Source of the DNA: Escherichia phage Cyrano
Reading direction: 5' to 3' (one strand)
DNA: 64,000 nucleotides
Sequence record: OV696614
Shown here: in pieces, positions 2,791 through 27,931 of the stretch
Position numbering within the stretch: position 1 is the stretch's first letter
Layout: the number at the start of each line of letters is the position of its first letter
Translations under genes and position numbers: made by a program
The notes under the pieces: model-generated
What the model was told of the DNA's origin: nothing
The model's database searches: none
The model's input: the letters and a program-made list of their open reading frames with translations, nothing else

Positions 2791-3573
2791 ATGAAAGACG
2801 AAATTCAGAAATTAGCCTGCGACATCATTGATAAAACTGGTTTAGAAATCAGCGAGAGCAATCGGCTAGACATCATTGAAAAAGCCGTAAAAACAGCAAT
2901 GGATCATATCGCCACTCGTTTGGTCGAGATCCCGCTACCGGGGCTACCTTATCTGAAGGTTAAGTTACACGTATGGGGTGAACCTTCTTGTGCACGGCGT
3001 TCTGCATTAGTTGTTTTTATTAGCAAAGAAAACCCGATCAGTCTTAAAGTGCAGGTTGGGGCATGGATGGATGGCAAAGCGATCTACACAAATACCGTTT
3101 TTTGTGCGTCAAATGACAGTATTATTGAAGAGGCTATTCAAGAATCACTTCTAACTATGCATAGCTTAGTTTTGCTGGAAGACAAGCAAAACTACGAAGA
3201 GTACTTACGGTCGATAAAAGGTGAGAGAACATTGTCACTTAAAGCCGATTTCGTTACCCCGACAAACCTGTTGGAAGTCTTGCTTAATAAAGGGGCTAAT
3301 GATGCTGTAAACCTAATCAGGGAGAGCGAATATTCGACTCTTTGGGACATGTGCAAAAGCCAGTTGGATCTTGTGCATATCATTGTTGATGCGGGTAAGG
3401 CGTGTGATGGCGTAATGGCGGAATTTGCTGGGAAGGTGGTCAGGATTGCTAACGAATTACCGATGATAGAGCAAGAGGCTAAATCATACGCCACCAATCA
3501 TGTCACAGAGCTTCTTGCCCCCTATCGCTTAGAAAGCAATCAGCGCAAGATGATTAGCTGGGGAAGTTGGTAA
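2791..3573 (+). CDS. hypothetical protein
   Basis: 260-aa ORF with AGGAG RBS upstream; no recognised motifs. Confidence 0.45.
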   Translation: MKDEIQKLACDIIDKTGLEISESNRLDIIEKAVKTAMDHIATRLVEIPLPGLPYLKVKLHVWGEPSCARRSALVVFISKENPISLKVQVGAWMDGKAIYTNTVFCASNDSIIEEAIQESLLTMHSLVLLEDKQNYEEYLRSIKGERTLSLKADFVTPTNLLEVLLNKGANDAVNLIRESEYSTLWDMCKSQLDLVHIIVDAGKACDGVMAEFAGKVVRIANELPMIEQEAKSYATNHVTELLAPYRLESNQRKMISWGSW

Positions 3574-3628
3574 TCTCTCAGTGTGTCGTTTTTTACGCAA
3601 AGAATGATAGGTAAGTACAAGATTATTT

Positions 3629-4111
3629 GTGGCGGTGGTTGTGAAAGCTGATTTGTCAAAAATCCCCTCTATTTCAGGAAATAATGGTTATTCACTTCGT
3701 TGTGAGGAAGTAAAGATAAACGGTGAGTCGGCATATTGCAGCTACTCCGTTTGCCAGCACACCATTCTTGCCTTCAAAGAAAACCGTCTTCCTCGAACTT
3801 CATTCCAGTCGTGCGCAACCGCTATCAAAGCAGGCAAATGCAAGGCGTTAAAAATGATGGTTGAAGAGATTCGTAAAGGAGAATCTCTGTATTTCGAAGA
3901 TATGACCGCACTCATTAAGGAGGTTGAAGAACGGAATAAACAAGCCAGAACTATAAAACGAAAACGTGACAGTGTAACGATTAATAGCATGGTTAAGAAG
4001 AGCGCCACATCACAAACAGCGATCACTGACGTGTATGCGGCGTTGCTTGAAGAAACAACAAAAGAAACACATGAGCAAATCGATCAACATATGGAGGCAA
4101 AACAACAATGA
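3629..4111 (+). CDS. hypothetical protein (start uncertain)
   Basis: 160-aa ORF from a GTG; basic C-terminal half; true start may be an internal ATG. Confidence 0.3.
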   Translation: MAVVVKADLSKIPSISGNNGYSLRCEEVKINGESAYCSYSVCQHTILAFKENRLPRTSFQSCATAIKAGKCKALKMMVEEIRKGESLYFEDMTALIKEVEERNKQARTIKRKRDSVTINSMVKKSATSQTAITDVYAALLEETTKETHEQIDQHMEAKQQ

Positions 4112-23064: not shown

Positions 23065-25404
23065 ATGGCAAAAGGAAAATCCGCACTGGCACTTGCTCTG
23101 AAAAAGAAAATCGGTAGCAACGACGAAATTCAGAAAGTAACTCATTGGATTGACACAGGCTTTCCTCCGTTAAACAAAGCTATTTCCGGTCGTTACGATG
23201 GCGGTTTCCCATGTGGTCGTATCGTAGAAGTATTCGGGCCACCAAGCGCGGGGAAATGTGTTACCGCAGACACCATGCTGCTGACGGAGCGTGGAATGGT
23301 AACAGTGAAAGAACTGTTTGAGATTGAGGGGCACAAAGCAACATGCACTACTCGCGATGTAGAGCATAACGTTGGACTCATCAATGAAAATGGCGTGATA
23401 GAGAAGACCTCACACCTGACATGGAACAACCGTCGCAAATTCAAGCGTATTAAGCTGGCATCAGGCGGTTATATCGAGGCTACGTTCCGTCACCCAATCC
23501 GTGTGGTTGACGACTTAGGTAATGTCGTCTGGCGACATGCTGAAAAAATCAGTGTAGGCGACACGATTCCTTCAATGGTTGGCACACATCAATTCGGCGA
23601 TCAGCACCTGGATGCCAATATCGCAAAACTGATGGGCTATTTAATTGCTGACGGATACGTGGCCTCTGAAAATTCAGTGAATTTTTCTAACACAGATCCT
23701 TTCATCAAGGATGAGTACTACCGCCTCATTTCGCTGGTATCAGACAAGATGCCAGTTACGAGAAAACATAACGGCTCGGAAGACCATGTGCTGTTTAGCA
23801 AAGAGGTGCGTTCGCTGCTTTTTAAAGAGTATGGTCTGGAGTATGAGAAAGCTGCTGGCAAGCAGGTTCCGTTGAGTGTGCGTCGCGCCAATAGCGAGGC
23901 TCAAATTGCATTCCTTCGCGGCTACTTTGAGCTGGAATGCCACGTCAATGATGGTCGCTGCATTGAGGTTGTGAGCGCGAGTGGGCTGCTGCTACAGCAA
24001 ATTCGCCTCATGCTCCTGAATCTGGGGATTACGTCAACTATCTCTGAAAAACACGTCGCGGGTTATGAAAATACATATTACCGGCTGTCATTCAGTGGCT
24101 CTAATTACGACCTTTTTCTGTCAACGATTGGTTTCGAATCTCCGGCACGTTTATCAGTGGCAACCAAACGGGACATTGGTTTTGACCGCACTTACTCAGG
24201 CTATGTTCCGCACATCAGCGGCTTAGTGAAATCACTCTACGAGTCGCTCACCAAGACCACCCGTGAAGACTACGCTCTGGTAGACCACGTTATTGGCCGC
24301 GGCGATCGTGTCGGAATAGACAAACTGCGAGAAATCTATGTCTCCTTCATTGGCAGAAAGAATCGTTTTAACGAGCATCTGTTTGCACAACTGGCAGCGG
24401 TAATTGGCTCTAACTTGTTCTACGACGAAGTCGTGGCTATTGAGGAAGGTGAAGCACCAACGTTCGACGTAGCGATGCCGGAAACACACTCTTTCTGGTC
24501 TAACGGGATTATCAGCCACAACACATTCCTTGCAACAGCAGCGATGATCTCCGCTCAAAAACAAGATGGTCTGGCGGTATTCCTCGATCATGAAAACAGT
24601 TTTGACGTTGGCCTGGCTGTAGCCAATGGCCTGAACGCAGATGAGGATGACGGTCAGTGGGTATACAAGCAGCCAGATACCTTCGAAGACTCTGTAGAGT
24701 TGATCGGCACAATACTTAAATTGGTTCGTGATGAAGAGCTTATCCCCGAATCAGCACCTATCTGTATCGTGGCTGACTCTCTTGCGTCTATGGTTCCGAA
24801 CTCCAAAGCCGAGAAGTTCGAAAAGATGGCTGAAGGCACTGCCAAAGACAAAGATCAGCTAAACATGAACGACAATACGGCACTGGCTCGTGCGACGAGT
24901 GCGAACTTCCCTACTCTGGCTTTGTGGGCACGCAAATACAACGCCTGCATCATCTTCTTGAATCAGGTTCGCACAAAAATCGGTGTAATGTTTGGCGACC
25001 CTACTACGTCGCCAGGTGGAGATTCACCGAAGTTTTACGCTTCTGTGCGCATCCGTCTCGGTGCATCGGTGATGAAGGATGGGAAAGAGAAGATCGGCCA
25101 GGACGTAGGCGCAGAATGCATCAAAAACAAAGTTGCACCACCGTATGGCAAATGCACCTGGAAATTCTACTTCGATCCTACTCGTGGCCTCGACGTTATC
25201 GAGTCGCTCGTCGAGTACATGCTGGAAGAAGGATACCTGCCAAAGAACGCCAGCGGGCGAGTTGAAATTGGTGACAAGAAATACACCAAATCGCAGATCG
25301 TCGACATGTATCGGGAGAAGCCATTAGCAGAAATCATTGCTGCGTTACAGGCGATAGATGACCGACGAGAGAAGACATCACCAACAGAAGAACTAGAAGA
25401 TTAA
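23065..25404 (+). CDS. recA: RecA-like recombinase interrupted by an intein
   Basis: 779 aa; extein GRIVEVFGPPSAGK..TFLATAAMISAQ resembles the RecA P-loop region GRIVEIYGPESSGKTT; 422-aa insertion inside the Walker A motif. Confidence 0.85.
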   Translation: MAKGKSALALALKKKIGSNDEIQKVTHWIDTGFPPLNKAISGRYDGGFPCGRIVEVFGPPSAGKCVTADTMLLTERGMVTVKELFEIEGHKATCTTRDVEHNVGLINENGVIEKTSHLTWNNRRKFKRIKLASGGYIEATFRHPIRVVDDLGNVVWRHAEKISVGDTIPSMVGTHQFGDQHLDANIAKLMGYLIADGYVASENSVNFSNTDPFIKDEYYRLISLVSDKMPVTRKHNGSEDHVLFSKEVRSLLFKEYGLEYEKAAGKQVPLSVRRANSEAQIAFLRGYFELECHVNDGRCIEVVSASGLLLQQIRLMLLNLGITSTISEKHVAGYENTYYRLSFSGSNYDLFLSTIGFESPARLSVATKRDIGFDRTYSGYVPHISGLVKSLYESLTKTTREDYALVDHVIGRGDRVGIDKLREIYVSFIGRKNRFNEHLFAQLAAVIGSNLFYDEVVAIEEGEAPTFDVAMPETHSFWSNGIISHNTFLATAAMISAQKQDGLAVFLDHENSFDVGLAVANGLNADEDDGQWVYKQPDTFEDSVELIGTILKLVRDEELIPESAPICIVADSLASMVPNSKAEKFEKMAEGTAKDKDQLNMNDNTALARATSANFPTLALWARKYNACIIFLNQVRTKIGVMFGDPTTSPGGDSPKFYASVRIRLGASVMKDGKEKIGQDVGAECIKNKVAPPYGKCTWKFYFDPTRGLDVIESLVEYMLEEGYLPKNASGRVEIGDKKYTKSQIVDMYREKPLAEIIAALQAIDDRREKTSPTEELED
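23257..24522 (+). mobile_element. Intein with LAGLIDADG homing endonuclease domain
   Basis: Begins with Cys right after GK of the P-loop, ends SHN followed by Thr that completes GKT; LAGLIDADG-like blocks LMGYLIADGYV and FLRGYFELECHV. Confidence 0.8.
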
Positions 25405-25409
25405 TTATC

Positions 25410-25434
25410 AGGCGTCCAAACGGACGCCTTTATT
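25410..25434 (+). terminator. Rho-independent terminator after recA-like gene
   Basis: aggcgtccaaacggacgcct hairpin then ttatt. Confidence 0.65.
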
Positions 25435-25497
25435 GTATGTTGAAAATGTATAAGCACTTACTTATCATTAGCACACAATAACCACATAGGAAAACAC

Positions 25498-25698
25498 ATG
25501 TTCAAACTCTATCTTATGGCAGTAGTTACAGGTCTATCTGTAGTTTTCATCTACTGTTTGCTGGTTCCGTCGCTGATCTCTGCTAAAAGCGACATTGCCG
25601 TAATGCTTGGAATCATCGTTGCTTTTGGTGCTCCTGTGATCGGGTTTATTGCAGGTCGTAAGTTTCTAAAGTCACTCATCAATTCGAAGGAGAAGTAA
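25498..25698 (+). CDS. small membrane protein (two predicted TM helices)
   Basis: 66 aa, hydrophobic; coupled to downstream SPFH gene. Confidence 0.5.
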   Translation: MFKLYLMAVVTGLSVVFIYCLLVPSLISAKSDIAVMLGIIVAFGAPVIGFIAGRKFLKSLINSKEK

Positions 25699-25701
25699 GT
25701 A

Positions 25702-26532
25702 ATGAAGAAAGGTTTACTTGCAGTTGCTCTGGCGGCTATTTGCACAATGGGTCTTACTGGCTGCGATCGCGTGGAGCCTGGATACGTTGGCATCAAAGTA
25801 AACAAATTAGGTGAAGACAAAGGGATTGGTGAAGTGGTTGGCGTTGGTCGCCAATGGACAGGTCTTAACACCGAACTTTACGTATTCCCGACCTTCAAAC
25901 AAATGAAGACCTACGACGAGCCGTTCACATTCCAGATGAGTGACGGTACTGCTATTGGTCACAAAATTGGCGTTGCGTATCTGGTTAATCGTGACAAGGT
26001 AACGACGGTGTTCCAGACCTATCGCAAAGGCGTAGACGATATCACCGAATCAGATCTGCGTCAGAAAATTGCCGACTCTCTAAACCGTTTGGCCAGCCGT
26101 ATGACCACTGACTCATTTATCGACGGTGGTAAGGCACAATTGCTGGACAACGCACTGAAAGATATTCAGAAAGAGATGTCTCCGGTTGGTATTGAGGTAC
26201 TGAGCCTGTCATGGGTTGGAAAGCCTGATTACCCAAAAACTGTCATTGAATCTATTAACGCCAAAGTAACGGCTAACCAGCGTACTCTGCAACGTCAGCA
26301 GGAAGTTGAACAACGTAAAGCTGAGGCGAATATGCTACGTGAACAGGCTAATGGTGAAGCTGATGCTATCCGTGCTCGTGCGCAAGCAGAAGCAGACGCC
26401 ATTCGTCTGCGCGGTGAAGCTCTGCGTCAAAACCCGAACGTTATGGAACTGGAAGCCATCAATAAATGGAATGGCCAGTTACCGCAGTACATGACTCAAG
26501 GGGCTAACACTCCTTTCATTACAGTGAAATAA
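25702..26532 (+). CDS. SPFH/band-7 family lipoprotein
   Basis: 276 aa; lipobox LTGC after signal peptide; C-terminal coiled coil rich in A/E/R/Q typical of stomatin/HflK-like proteins. Confidence 0.6.
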   Translation: MKKGLLAVALAAICTMGLTGCDRVEPGYVGIKVNKLGEDKGIGEVVGVGRQWTGLNTELYVFPTFKQMKTYDEPFTFQMSDGTAIGHKIGVAYLVNRDKVTTVFQTYRKGVDDITESDLRQKIADSLNRLASRMTTDSFIDGGKAQLLDNALKDIQKEMSPVGIEVLSLSWVGKPDYPKTVIESINAKVTANQRTLQRQQEVEQRKAEANMLREQANGEADAIRARAQAEADAIRLRGEALRQNPNVMELEAINKWNGQLPQYMTQGANTPFITVK

Positions 26533-26548: not shown

Positions 26549-26574
26549 AGGCGTCCAGTTGGACGCCTTTTTTA
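26549..26574 (+). terminator. Rho-independent terminator
   Basis: aggcgtccagttggacgcct hairpin then ttttttat. Confidence 0.65.
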
Positions 26575-26609: not shown

Positions 26610-26746
26610 AGGGTTAAGAAAATATAACAGCTATTAAGAAACTCTACGATGCCGCAAACGCGGCTCTGGATGTTATTGATGATGAAGTATCAAAAGGCTT
26701 TCCTGAACCTGATTGGGCGCATCAGCTACGAAACGCTATCGCCGAA

Positions 26747-27049
26747 ATGAATCCACCAGATCCGACCACCGAGGAGACAGACTGGCAGCGATTCATCCGT
26801 ATGTACGCTCAGGAAATAGGTCCAACGCCAACGGCAGAGCAGGCAATGCTGCTGAAATACTTCAAAGAGGCGGGAGAGGATTTACCAATTGATGACTCAG
26901 CATATTGGTTCCACTGCGCATGGCGTAAGTATGACGTGATATTCACACAAGGCATGGGAAGCAAAGATATGGTTGTGTGGCATCTACTCCATATAGACAC
27001 AGCCGTTGACAGAGTTATTGAACAGTTTTTCCCTAAACAAGAAGATTGA
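26747..27049 (+). CDS. hypothetical protein (start uncertain)
   Basis: 100 aa; about 40 in-frame stop-free codons upstream without an ATG, so start may be non-canonical. Confidence 0.35.
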   Translation: MNPPDPTTEETDWQRFIRMYAQEIGPTPTAEQAMLLKYFKEAGEDLPIDDSAYWFHCAWRKYDVIFTQGMGSKDMVVWHLLHIDTAVDRVIEQFFPKQED

Positions 27050-27380: not shown

Positions 27381-27595
27381 GTTTACAGTAAAATTTATAT
27401 AAGTTAGTATCTACCTATCATGAAGATTTTTATTGAATACTTGTTACTCATCGTTTCAATAGCTTTTGTCATCGACTGCATTTTCACTGGTGTCATTCGT
27501 AAAGTCTTTTCCCCGGTGCACGACGTAGTCATAAACGCTTTGGCTATCGTGCTCGTATTTAATTCAGCATTTGATGTAATCAAAGAGGTGGCAGC

Positions 27596-27931
27596 ATGAA
27601 GGCCATCCCATTCGCGCTGTTGTTCCTTTCTTCGATCGTTGTGGCCGACACCACTGTTTATCAGTGTGAAATGTCTGTAGCCGACGTTAAGAATGGCGCT
27701 CTTACCGACGTCATAAAAGCACCATATGGAGCGATGGTCGTAGACAGCGGCGACCAGTTCTATGTTGTGCGTGACGATCGAGTGTTGTCATCCCCATATC
27801 TCACAAATCGTAATGGCAAATTAACCGGCGTCGGAGAAGACCACTTCGTATACAACAAATACAAGGGCTTCTATGGCGTTCACGCTTCTCAGCAAAGCTA
27901 CCTTTTCGATGACTGCAAGGAGGTTGGATAA
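27596..27931 (+). CDS. secreted or periplasmic small protein
   Basis: 111 aa; N-terminal signal peptide MKAIPFALLFLSSIVVA. Confidence 0.5.
   Translation: MKAIPFALLFLSSIVVADTTVYQCEMSVADVKNGALTDVIKAPYGAMVVDSGDQFYVVRDDRVLSSPYLTNRNGKLTGVGEDHFVYNKYKGFYGVHASQQSYLFDDCKEVG

Follow-up and report, generated by a model that had tools for sequence, protein, structure and literature searches.

A removable two-gene cassette of Escherichia phage Cyrano encodes a lipoprotein-type SPFH protein and a two-helix partner, predicted to form a periplasm-facing scaffold at the inner membrane

The DNA analyzed here is a stretch of 64,000 nucleotides (nt) from Escherichia phage Cyrano (sequence record OV696614), referred to below as the window, and its subject is a unit of two genes, at positions 25,498 to 26,532, which encodes a small membrane protein of 66 amino acids (aa), hereafter the partner, and a lipoprotein-type SPFH protein of 276 aa. 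With respect to structure and organization, the evidence leans towards a two-component SPFH scaffold of the inner membrane, facing the periplasm and organized as an accessory cassette. To our knowledge, SPFH proteins (stomatin, prohibitin, and flotillin, together with HflK/C) form membrane cages, and most of the bacterial members are without an established function. A dispensable cassette of ~1 kilobase (kb), with natural sisters that are devoid of it, and with scaffold and anchor either split or fused, would thus be a tractable minimal system for the function of SPFH cages. The presence of the SPFH gene is unsurprising in itself, and such genes are routinely annotated as "SPFH domain-containing protein." What is new relative to the searchable literature is the two-helix partner with its fusions, the spread of the pair over virulent phages, temperate phages, and chromosomes, and a shared putative operator. 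The two genes and the features of their products are the following:

25498–25698, + strand: gene of the 66-aa partner, with the open reading frame (ORF) starting and stopping where the initial annotation of this DNA had placed it
25687–25692, + strand: Shine–Dalgarno sequence AAGGAG of the SPFH gene, within the 3′ end of the partner ORF
25702–26532, + strand: gene of the 276-aa SPFH protein, with the ORF also placed as in the initial annotation
25702–25764, + strand: lipoprotein signal peptide with the lipobox L-T-G-C (Cys21), followed by Asp22-Arg23
25768–26328, + strand: SPFH/Band 7 domain (Pfam PF01145), residues 23–209
26236–26430, + strand: long helix rich in Ala, Glu, Arg, and Gln, residues 179–243, from the predicted model
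26452–26532, + strand: C-terminal tail E-A-I-N-K-W-N-G-x-L-P...P-F, with the conserved columns W256, G258, and P261

The 276-aa product belongs to the lipoprotein type of SPFH proteins and has every architectural part of a cage former, namely the domain, the long helix of the wall, a second, short helix, and the conserved tail. It matched the Pfam profile PF01145 (Band_7) with 106.2 bits (cut-off 23.6; E = 2.6e-30), over profile positions 2–176 of 176. The domain search that the initial annotation had suggested was therefore positive, and its description of the protein as an SPFH lipoprotein with a long coiled coil is borne out by this match, by the lipobox cysteine Cys21, and by the modeled helix 179–243. 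The N terminus is composed of MKK, a hydrophobic stretch, and L-T-G-C21, which fits the lipobox pattern [LVI][ASTVI][GAS]C, and Cys21 was at least 90% conserved across 82 homologs. Among the close homologs captured by a sequence pattern, 96 of the 101 carried Cys-Asp, with the Asp at position +2. In enterobacteria, Asp at +2 is a signal for retention in the inner membrane by avoidance of the Lol system. Fused homologs with transmembrane helices, described below, independently put the SPFH domain at the inner membrane.

An AlphaFold2 monomer model of the SPFH protein, with 82 diverse homologs as the input, had a mean predicted local distance difference test (pLDDT) score of 84, and of ~90 across the SPFH domain. 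The model consists of a signal helix, the alpha/beta SPFH domain (residues 21–176), one helix of 65 residues (179–243), a short helix (246–254), and a flexible tail of low pLDDT. In a Foldseek search of the PDB, the top match was HflK (7vhq_E, 2e-14), followed by prohibitin, erlin, HflC, stomatin, flotillin, QmcA, and the major vault protein. The probability was 1.00 for HflK, prohibitin, erlin, stomatin, flotillin, and QmcA, and the alignments to cage subunits were full-length. As modeled, helix 179–243 corresponds to the coiled-coil helix that forms the wall of SPFH cages. The residues W256, G258, and P261 of the tail are invariant across the family and among its most conserved, and by analogy with known cages the tail is presumed to be a cap or an oligomerization element.

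Membership in the named subfamilies was rejected. The protein scored 18.7 bits on the hflK model (TIGR01933; cut-off 159.4) and 30.2 bits on the hflC model (TIGR01932; cut-off 134.4), while for flotillin it reached 19.9 bits vs. 27 on PF15975 (residues 208–266) and 16 vs. 700 on NF058507 (FloT). In a profile search of the PDB, QmcA, HflK, HflC, and prohibitin were about equally distant (E = 1e-6 to 1e-5). This equidistance, together with the failed equivalog cut-offs for HflK, HflC, and FloT, indicates a separate SPFH subfamily.

The HflK/HflC system of E. coli (7vhp/7vhq, 7wi3, 9cz2) is similar to the pair in being a two-gene operon and in having an inner-membrane anchor, a periplasmic SPFH domain, a wall helix, and a C-terminal cap region, all of which are predicted here; HflK is also the best PDB match by sequence (E = 0.007), as it is by fold. 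However, HflK and HflC are two SPFH paralogs, each with its own uncleaved transmembrane helix, whereas the cassette encodes a single SPFH protein with a cleaved lipoprotein signal and a two-helix partner that is not an SPFH protein. The fold match to prohibitins (SPFH4 of Hinderhofer et al. 2009; PHB1/2 cages 8rrh and 9o9z) was nearly as strong (7.5e-14 to PHB1/2), the homologs in Dyella are named "prohibitin family protein" by NCBI, and the orientation, away from the cytoplasm or the matrix, is similar. The differences from prohibitins are the lipid anchor, in place of a helix, and the dedicated two-helix partner.

These resemblances bear on one alternative, in which the pair is an HflK/C mimic that retunes the protease FtsH by caging or displacing it, so that the turnover of its substrates (CII/CIII-type regulators, sigma-32, LpxC, and membrane proteins), and with it the frequency of lysogeny or the yield of infection, is shifted. 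The predicted topology is that of HflK/C, the weak NCBIfam matches are to hflC and hflK, and a conserved host target would explain the strong conservation of the SPFH protein. In Stx2 phages, moreover, the leftward early operon contains the pair, with cI on one side and xis/int on the other, and Hinderhofer et al. (2009; PMC2636767) put forward the idea that prokaryotic prohibitins which face the periplasm may take the place of HflK/C. On the other hand, the scores are far under the equivalog cut-offs, the profile is no closer to HflK or HflC than to QmcA or prohibitin, and the pair is also present in virulent phages, which have no lysogeny decision to influence. None of the loci showed genomic linkage to ftsH. 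We consider this explanation rather unlikely.

The partner has two hydrophobic stretches by hydropathy (approximately residues 4–24 and 34–53) and a basic C-terminal tail, in agreement with the two-helix membrane protein of 66 aa that had been described from the ORF. In its loop of nine residues (P-S-L-I-S-A-K-S-D), the motif P24-x3-S28 is conserved, as is G38 of the second helix, and these Pro, Ser, and Gly residues are invariant across phyla. The protein matched phrog_1130 ("membrane protein," E = 1e-25), and it had no match in Pfam at E up to 0.1. Its gene is tightly coupled to the SPFH gene, as initially annotated, since only 3 nt separate its stop codon TAA (25696–25698) from the ATG of the SPFH gene, whose AAGGAG lies inside the first ORF. 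The two genes are closely juxtaposed or overlapping in every lineage examined. The minus-strand ORFs inside the unit and one internal ORF of the + strand were without a family match, and an Rfam scan of the unit returned chance-level matches only, none of them reaching the threshold.

To define the distribution of the partner, a profile hidden Markov model was used whose source sequences share the invariant Pro and Ser of the loop and the Gly of helix 2, and 64 loci from species-representative genomes were searched. This sample spans Enterobacterales, Sutterella, Dyella and other Rhodanobacteraceae, and Methylumidiphilus, as well as Dependentiae, Saprospirales, Flavobacterium, and Bacteroidales. 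The partner was found in 58 of the 64 loci (E up to 0.01), and in 56 of the 64 its gene was on the same strand as the SPFH gene, 0–83 nt upstream. In the two remaining partner-positive loci, an IS1 element lies between the two genes. As judged from this gene content and arrangement, the two-helix protein is an obligate, conserved, and co-translated partner of the SPFH protein.

The two interrupted loci (L093 and L094) are from chromosomes of Shigella flexneri and E. coli, and the IS1, at ~3230–4000, has uncoupled the pair and altered the C terminus of the partner. A third gene in the intergenic gap of ~800 nt of these loci was considered and rejected, the gap being the IS1 insertion.

In many representatives of clusters formed at 50% identity, the partner is fused in-frame to the N terminus of the SPFH protein (P0156, P0166, P0167, P0177, P0183, P0318, P0345, and P0382), while in P0161 it is fused at the C terminus instead. 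The order in the N-terminal fusions is two helices, a third hydrophobic segment with a lipobox-like end, and the SPFH domain. A further natural fusion to the N terminus, P0021, comes from a P1-like relative that is close, in which the two frames usually share 20 nt, and the predicted model of the natural P1-like fusion has three helices ahead of the SPFH fold. These in-frame fusions imply that the two proteins constitute a 1:1 functional unit. They also imply a topology in which the partner has both termini inside and its loop in the periplasm, with the SPFH domain on the periplasmic side of the inner membrane.

Small membrane proteins are already known from the NfeD–SPFH operons (QmcA–YbbJ 8z5g, YqiJ–YqiK, and PH1510/PH1511), which are comparable in that a small membrane gene is paired, and sometimes fused, with the gene of an SPFH protein of cage-forming fold across phyla (PMC2636767). 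The partner described here differs in being only ~60–80 aa long and in having no NfeD/OB-fold domain, as PF01957 was found in none of 16 diverse members at E up to 1. The SPFH domain of QmcA is also cytoplasmic, unlike that of the cassette, which is predicted to be periplasmic. For the HflK/C and prohibitin-type subfamilies, no partner was found by Hinderhofer et al. (PMC2636767).

The unit is flanked by two hairpins, and the sequence elements outside the coding regions are the following:

25410–25429, + strand: upstream hairpin with a stem of 8 base pairs (bp), six of them G-C; left copy of the flanking direct repeat
25440–25468, + strand: candidate sigma-70-like promoter, TTGAAA-17-TATCAT, 10 of 12 matches, located after the upstream hairpin and ahead of the partner gene
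25450–25465, no strand assigned: 7-N2-7 inverted repeat ATAAGCA-CT-TACTTAT in the promoter spacer, with its right arm overlapping the −10 element; putative operator
26549–26568, + strand: downstream hairpin with a T6 run after it, the cassette's terminator; right copy of the flanking direct repeat

The cassette region shares 95% identity with Escherichia phage PhiR41_1 and 78% DNA identity with Salmonella phage SSU5, from which the window can be recognized as an E. coli phage-plasmid of the SSU5 type. In SSU5, the same pair is annotated as "membrane protein" and "lipoprotein," downstream of the recombinase, and both the hairpins and the promoter-like site are kept. Among 51 SSU5-type loci, the upstream hairpin was present in 46, the downstream hairpin in 49, and the promoter-like site in all 51; the stems of the hairpins are conserved and the loops are variable. 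In the window, the two hairpins are near-identical, and their common motif AGGCGTCC-N4-GGACGCCT occurs at those two sites only in the 64 kb (0 expected).

Comparison with 703 related plasmids identified an empty site. In the E. coli plasmid pYPE3-114k, both flanks match the window and ~1.1 kb is missing, so that the stop codon of the recombinase is followed by a single hairpin and then by the sequence which, in the window, comes after the second hairpin (TTTTTTATCGCAATTATCTTATTAAG). Additionally, the two genes are absent from the SSU5-type plasmids of Klebsiella. This empty single-hairpin site and the absence from the Klebsiella relatives establish the unit as a genuine accessory cassette that is removable, and its gain or loss maps to the direct repeat of the terminator.

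The upstream hairpin is the terminator of the recombinase gene that precedes the cassette. Each of the two 8-bp hairpins has a predicted energy of −15.1 kcal/mol, which agrees with the strong terminators initially described on both sides. This holds less well for the upstream one, however, which precedes TTTATTG, an interrupted T tract, in place of the T6 run found in most relatives, and is for this reason the weaker terminator.

The inverted repeat in the promoter spacer is not exclusive to the cassette. The consensus ATAAGTA-N2-TACTTAT was located about ten times across the window (with 16 strand-hits, where 0.53 were expected), including ~6252, 13262, 20659, 25450, 35883, 40599, 45436, 47655, and 52619, and almost all of these are in short intergenic gaps just upstream of genes of the + strand. 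Among the downstream genes are those for a gp32-type single-stranded DNA-binding protein (SSB), the large subunit of ribonucleotide reductase, thymidylate synthase, Dam methylase, and an AAA_5 protein. Judged by its sequence and positions, the palindrome probably serves the DNA-metabolism (early) regulon of the phage as a shared operator or promoter element. Because it is shared with about nine other promoters, the expression of the cassette probably follows the early program and is not autonomous. The proposal that the unit is an independent moron can therefore be retained for its organization, as a terminator-flanked accessory cassette with a promoter-like site, as in the comparisons with pYPE3-114k and Klebsiella, but probably not for its regulation; if the palindrome is the operator of a shared regulon, we infer that the cassette would be removable and not self-regulated.

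Homologs of the SPFH protein were detected by tblastn in 412 phage records. The matches included Schitoviridae (N4-like), Vequintavirinae (rV5-like), Ounavirinae (phiEa104), and Bruynoghevirus (LUZ24-like), all of which are virulent groups, and also phiCbK, Lak megaphages, and one crAss-like phage. The pair was found inside the early operon of the P2-like phage P88 (gp11/gp12), in P1-like phage-plasmids such as RCS47, in the N4-like Shigella virus Moo19, where the annotation reads "similar to N4 gp19" and "N4 gp20," and in the rV5-like phage 4MG, where a small additional ORF separates the two genes. The direct homologs thus comprise N4 gp19/gp20 (according to the Moo19 annotation), PHROG 1130 and 200, SSU5_061/SSU5_062, P88 gp11/gp12, and the RCS47 "lipoprotein," with the same two genes in the same order and an SPFH identity of 63%–94%. 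In the phages examined, the SPFH gene has early or middle genes around it, for example those for polymerases, nucleases, and a ligase. SPFH folds are common in other viruses too, giant viruses included.

The direct homologs are annotated as lipoprotein, as SPFH domain protein, or, wrongly, as "serine protease." The last label is frequent for the SPFH lipoprotein in phage records (P88, phiP27, Stx2 phages, RCS47, and Erwinia phages), some of which read "transposase"; neither name is supported by sequence or fold, and both look like propagated misannotation. An N4-like arrangement was also seen in a contig labeled as an archaeal metagenome-assembled genome (L149), probably as phage contamination of the bin.

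The size of the partner and its two helices, with a short loop and a charged C terminus, are holin-like, and a role in the timing of lysis was therefore considered, the 66-aa protein acting as a class II holin or antiholin restrained by the SPFH scaffold. N4, which has gp19/gp20 homologs by the Moo19 annotation, shows lysis inhibition (bioRxiv 10.1101/2025.11.12.688109). In the same study, however, the lysis and rapid-lysis functions map to gp60–63, and gp19 and gp20 are not mentioned. Among the phages examined, the pair was never in a lysis cassette, its place being in early or replication regions; the sole PHROG match of the partner, phrog_1130, is not a holin family; and the chromosomal and fused forms are ill-suited to a holin. 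Of the alternatives weighed here, this is the one to which we give the least credence.

The pair is also widespread in bacterial genomes. A copy was carried by 748 of the 5,426 complete E. coli genomes (~14%), about equally on plasmids and in chromosomal prophages. Plasmids of the pMT1 type of Yersinia pestis have the cassette in the order recombinase, small protein, and SPFH protein, with a DNA identity of ~81% (H132–H136), and the SPFH protein is 94% identical in locus L092. In Dyella, in contrast with these mobile copies, the location is chromosomal and not in a prophage, with the pair between blaI/blaR1-like genes and nrdAB in most species of the genus (e.g., L107, 3776–4849); this synteny is kept in 12–13 of 17 loci. 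Loci L103–L137 are chromosomal loci of Dyella and other Rhodanobacteraceae.

Its frequency in E. coli, and its presence on plasmids of Y. pestis and in Stx phages, would be in line with a factor of lysogenic conversion or virulence, that is, a lipoprotein made from the resident prophage-plasmid and exposed in the envelope or in vesicles, where it would change how host and pathogen interact, for instance by TLR2 signaling. The "HflK/C-like" prophage protein PM0222 (OAZ06802.1) of Pasteurella multocida, which is possibly related, is produced by the lysogen, was detected in outer-membrane vesicles, activates TLR1/2, and attenuates virulence in mice when deleted (PMC9872710). The relationship of PM0222 to the family is only a possible one, though, and the pair occurs in virulent phages and in soil Dyella as well. 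The promoter palindrome is common to genes of DNA metabolism, and the predicted location is the inner membrane. We therefore regard this explanation as very unlikely.

Purifying selection on the SPFH protein is very strong, and its conservation equals that of the recombinase. When the window is compared with SSU5, the protein has 94% aa identity, the synonymous sites are saturated, and the ratio of nonsynonymous to synonymous substitution rates (dN/dS) is ~0.03 (0.025–0.05). In the same comparison, the identity is 94.5% for the RecA-like recombinase, 92% for the exonuclease, 83% for the SSB, and 68%–78% for most of the small neighbors. Against the P1-like, P2-like, and N4-like copies, the dN/dS of the SPFH protein is 0.05–0.13, and its identity is 63% to the N4-like homolog and 47% to the rV5-like one. 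The partner is also under purifying selection (dN/dS 0.13–0.25) and changes much faster than the SPFH protein, with 56% identity to that of SSU5.

The initial annotation had suggested superinfection exclusion or protection of the envelope, and in this alternative the pair would block, at the inner membrane, the entry of DNA from a secondary phage, or colicins and pore-formers. A pair of membrane and periplasmic proteins made early resembles the exclusion proteins of virulent phages, and a removable accessory cassette is suited to such a role. T4 offers the analogy, as Imm is a small two-helix protein of the inner membrane and Sp is periplasmic, both being made early and protecting the infected cell from superinfection. 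The analogy does not extend beyond this, since the T4 proteins have no relation in sequence or fold to the pair, are not SPFH proteins, and are encoded by nonadjacent genes. The partner also belongs to the PHROGs category "moron, auxiliary metabolic gene and host takeover," and in a table of Vi01-like phages, an SPFH protein stands beside a "superinfection exclusion protein" (PMC3220722).

Two genomic neighborhoods bear on this alternative. In P1-like elements, the slot between tRNA genes and ban holds the pair in RCS47 and vB_EcoM-813R1 (L048, L088), and tciA-tciB-tciC in the reference P1, P7, D6, and SJ46; this slot is a hotspot of interchangeable cargo. The tciABC genes are annotated for tellurite/colicin resistance (TerB-like), and their proteins are unrelated to the pair, so the alternation says no more than that envelope-related cargo is interchangeable in this slot. 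An equation of the pair with P1 plp/upl was rejected, as these are different, oppositely oriented genes in the RCS47 annotation and the pair replaces tciABC. In Moo19, the gene just upstream of the pair (L083, 1891–2205) belongs to the Pfam family GP17, "superinfection exclusion gene product 17" (E = 3e-46). This neighbor was present in N4-like loci only, and its association with the pair in general was therefore discarded.

Other observations weigh against exclusion. No defense-system family of PADLOC-DB v2 matched either protein at E up to 1, and the strong conservation across unrelated phages (dN/dS ~0.03) is not usual for exclusion proteins of the kind that tracks its rivals. The syntenic chromosomal copy in Dyella also counts against exclusion, and discrete cages would cover only patches of the membrane. 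Exclusion is therefore judged to be improbable, and phage-specific exclusion is less likely than a function directed at the host. The latter is favored by the conservation across unrelated phages, the chromosomal orthologs of Dyella, the wiring to the early regulon, and the absence of a match among defense models. No functional study of this SPFH/partner family was found in the searchable literature; a survey of Pseudomonas SPFH proteins had no evident member of it, and a paper on Gifsy resistance, considered as a source of function, concerns another protein.

In the mechanism that we favor for the periplasm-facing scaffold, the SPFH protein would be exported, lipidated at Cys21, and kept in the inner membrane by the Asp at +2, facing the periplasm, where it would oligomerize into a dome like that of HflK/C or prohibitin. 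The partner would give the membrane-spanning helices, or palisade, that the cleaved lipoprotein does not have, with its P-x3-S loop at the periplasmic face, beneath the SPFH domain. Dome and partner together would then fence off a patch of the inner membrane. Expression would come with the early DNA-metabolism regulon of the phage and would not be constitutive from the prophage. The scaffold could corral or shield a conserved client of the inner membrane, such as an FtsH-type protease or other complexes, or stabilize the membrane during phage development. The specific cellular role, as a host-directed takeover or auxiliary function, is offered as no more than a tentative suggestion.

Several points weigh against this scaffold. 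The identity of the SPFH protein to HflK/C is only ~17%. Its Asp at +2 precedes an Arg at +3, and a basic residue at +3 can weaken retention in the inner membrane. The N4-like, rV5-like, and other homologs have Tyr, Glu, Ser, or Asn at +2, so that, by their sequence, some of the homologs without Asp might reach the outer membrane. The possibly related PM0222, as mentioned, was found in outer-membrane vesicles (PMC9872710). Finally, we infer the role of the palindrome as an operator from its distribution in the window.

A broader proposal, which we advance with corresponding reserve as a possible but doubtful one, is that the pair is a two-component SPFH system, the "split" form of a three-helix fusion, ancient in Gram-negative bacteria and captured by at least eight unrelated lineages of tailed phages, in which it is expressed early for takeover of the host membrane. 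If true, the capture would have been repeated, in temperate and virulent phages alike, and periplasm-facing cages would be a general and unrecognized step of takeover, which might hold a conserved client, FtsH for instance, or protect the membrane against secondary attack. A defined role would explain a widespread and conserved phage function at the inner membrane of the host, be it protease control, membrane stabilization, or exclusion. If the role is instead ordinary housekeeping of the membrane, the pair would be a well-annotated but unremarkable set of accessory genes.

Some observations were made in the genes that surround the cassette. An intein that includes a LAGLIDADG homing endonuclease sits behind the P-loop (GPPSAGK|C...SHN|T) of the upstream RecA-like recombinase (23065–25404, + strand), giving it a length of 779 aa, while the SSU5 homolog, of 358 aa, is without an intein. 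Relatives are variously named "intein-containing recombinase RecA" or "LAGLIDADG family homing endonuclease." Downstream of the cassette, the gene for a DUF7238 protein has ATA at the position of the start codon (26624–26626), which is ATG in 17 related loci. The ORF that remains has 100 aa (26747–27049) and is missing the first ~22 positions of the Pfam model; the ATA is either a start-codon mutation, with possible inactivation or use of a noncanonical start, or a sequencing error. Further downstream, on the + strand, the stop codon of a hydrophobic ORF of 59 aa (27420–27599) overlaps the start of an ORF of 111 aa (27596–27931), which has a signal-peptide-like N terminus (MKAIPFALLFLSSIVVA). 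Neither of these ORFs had a match in Pfam, and they may be a second membrane/periplasmic pair.

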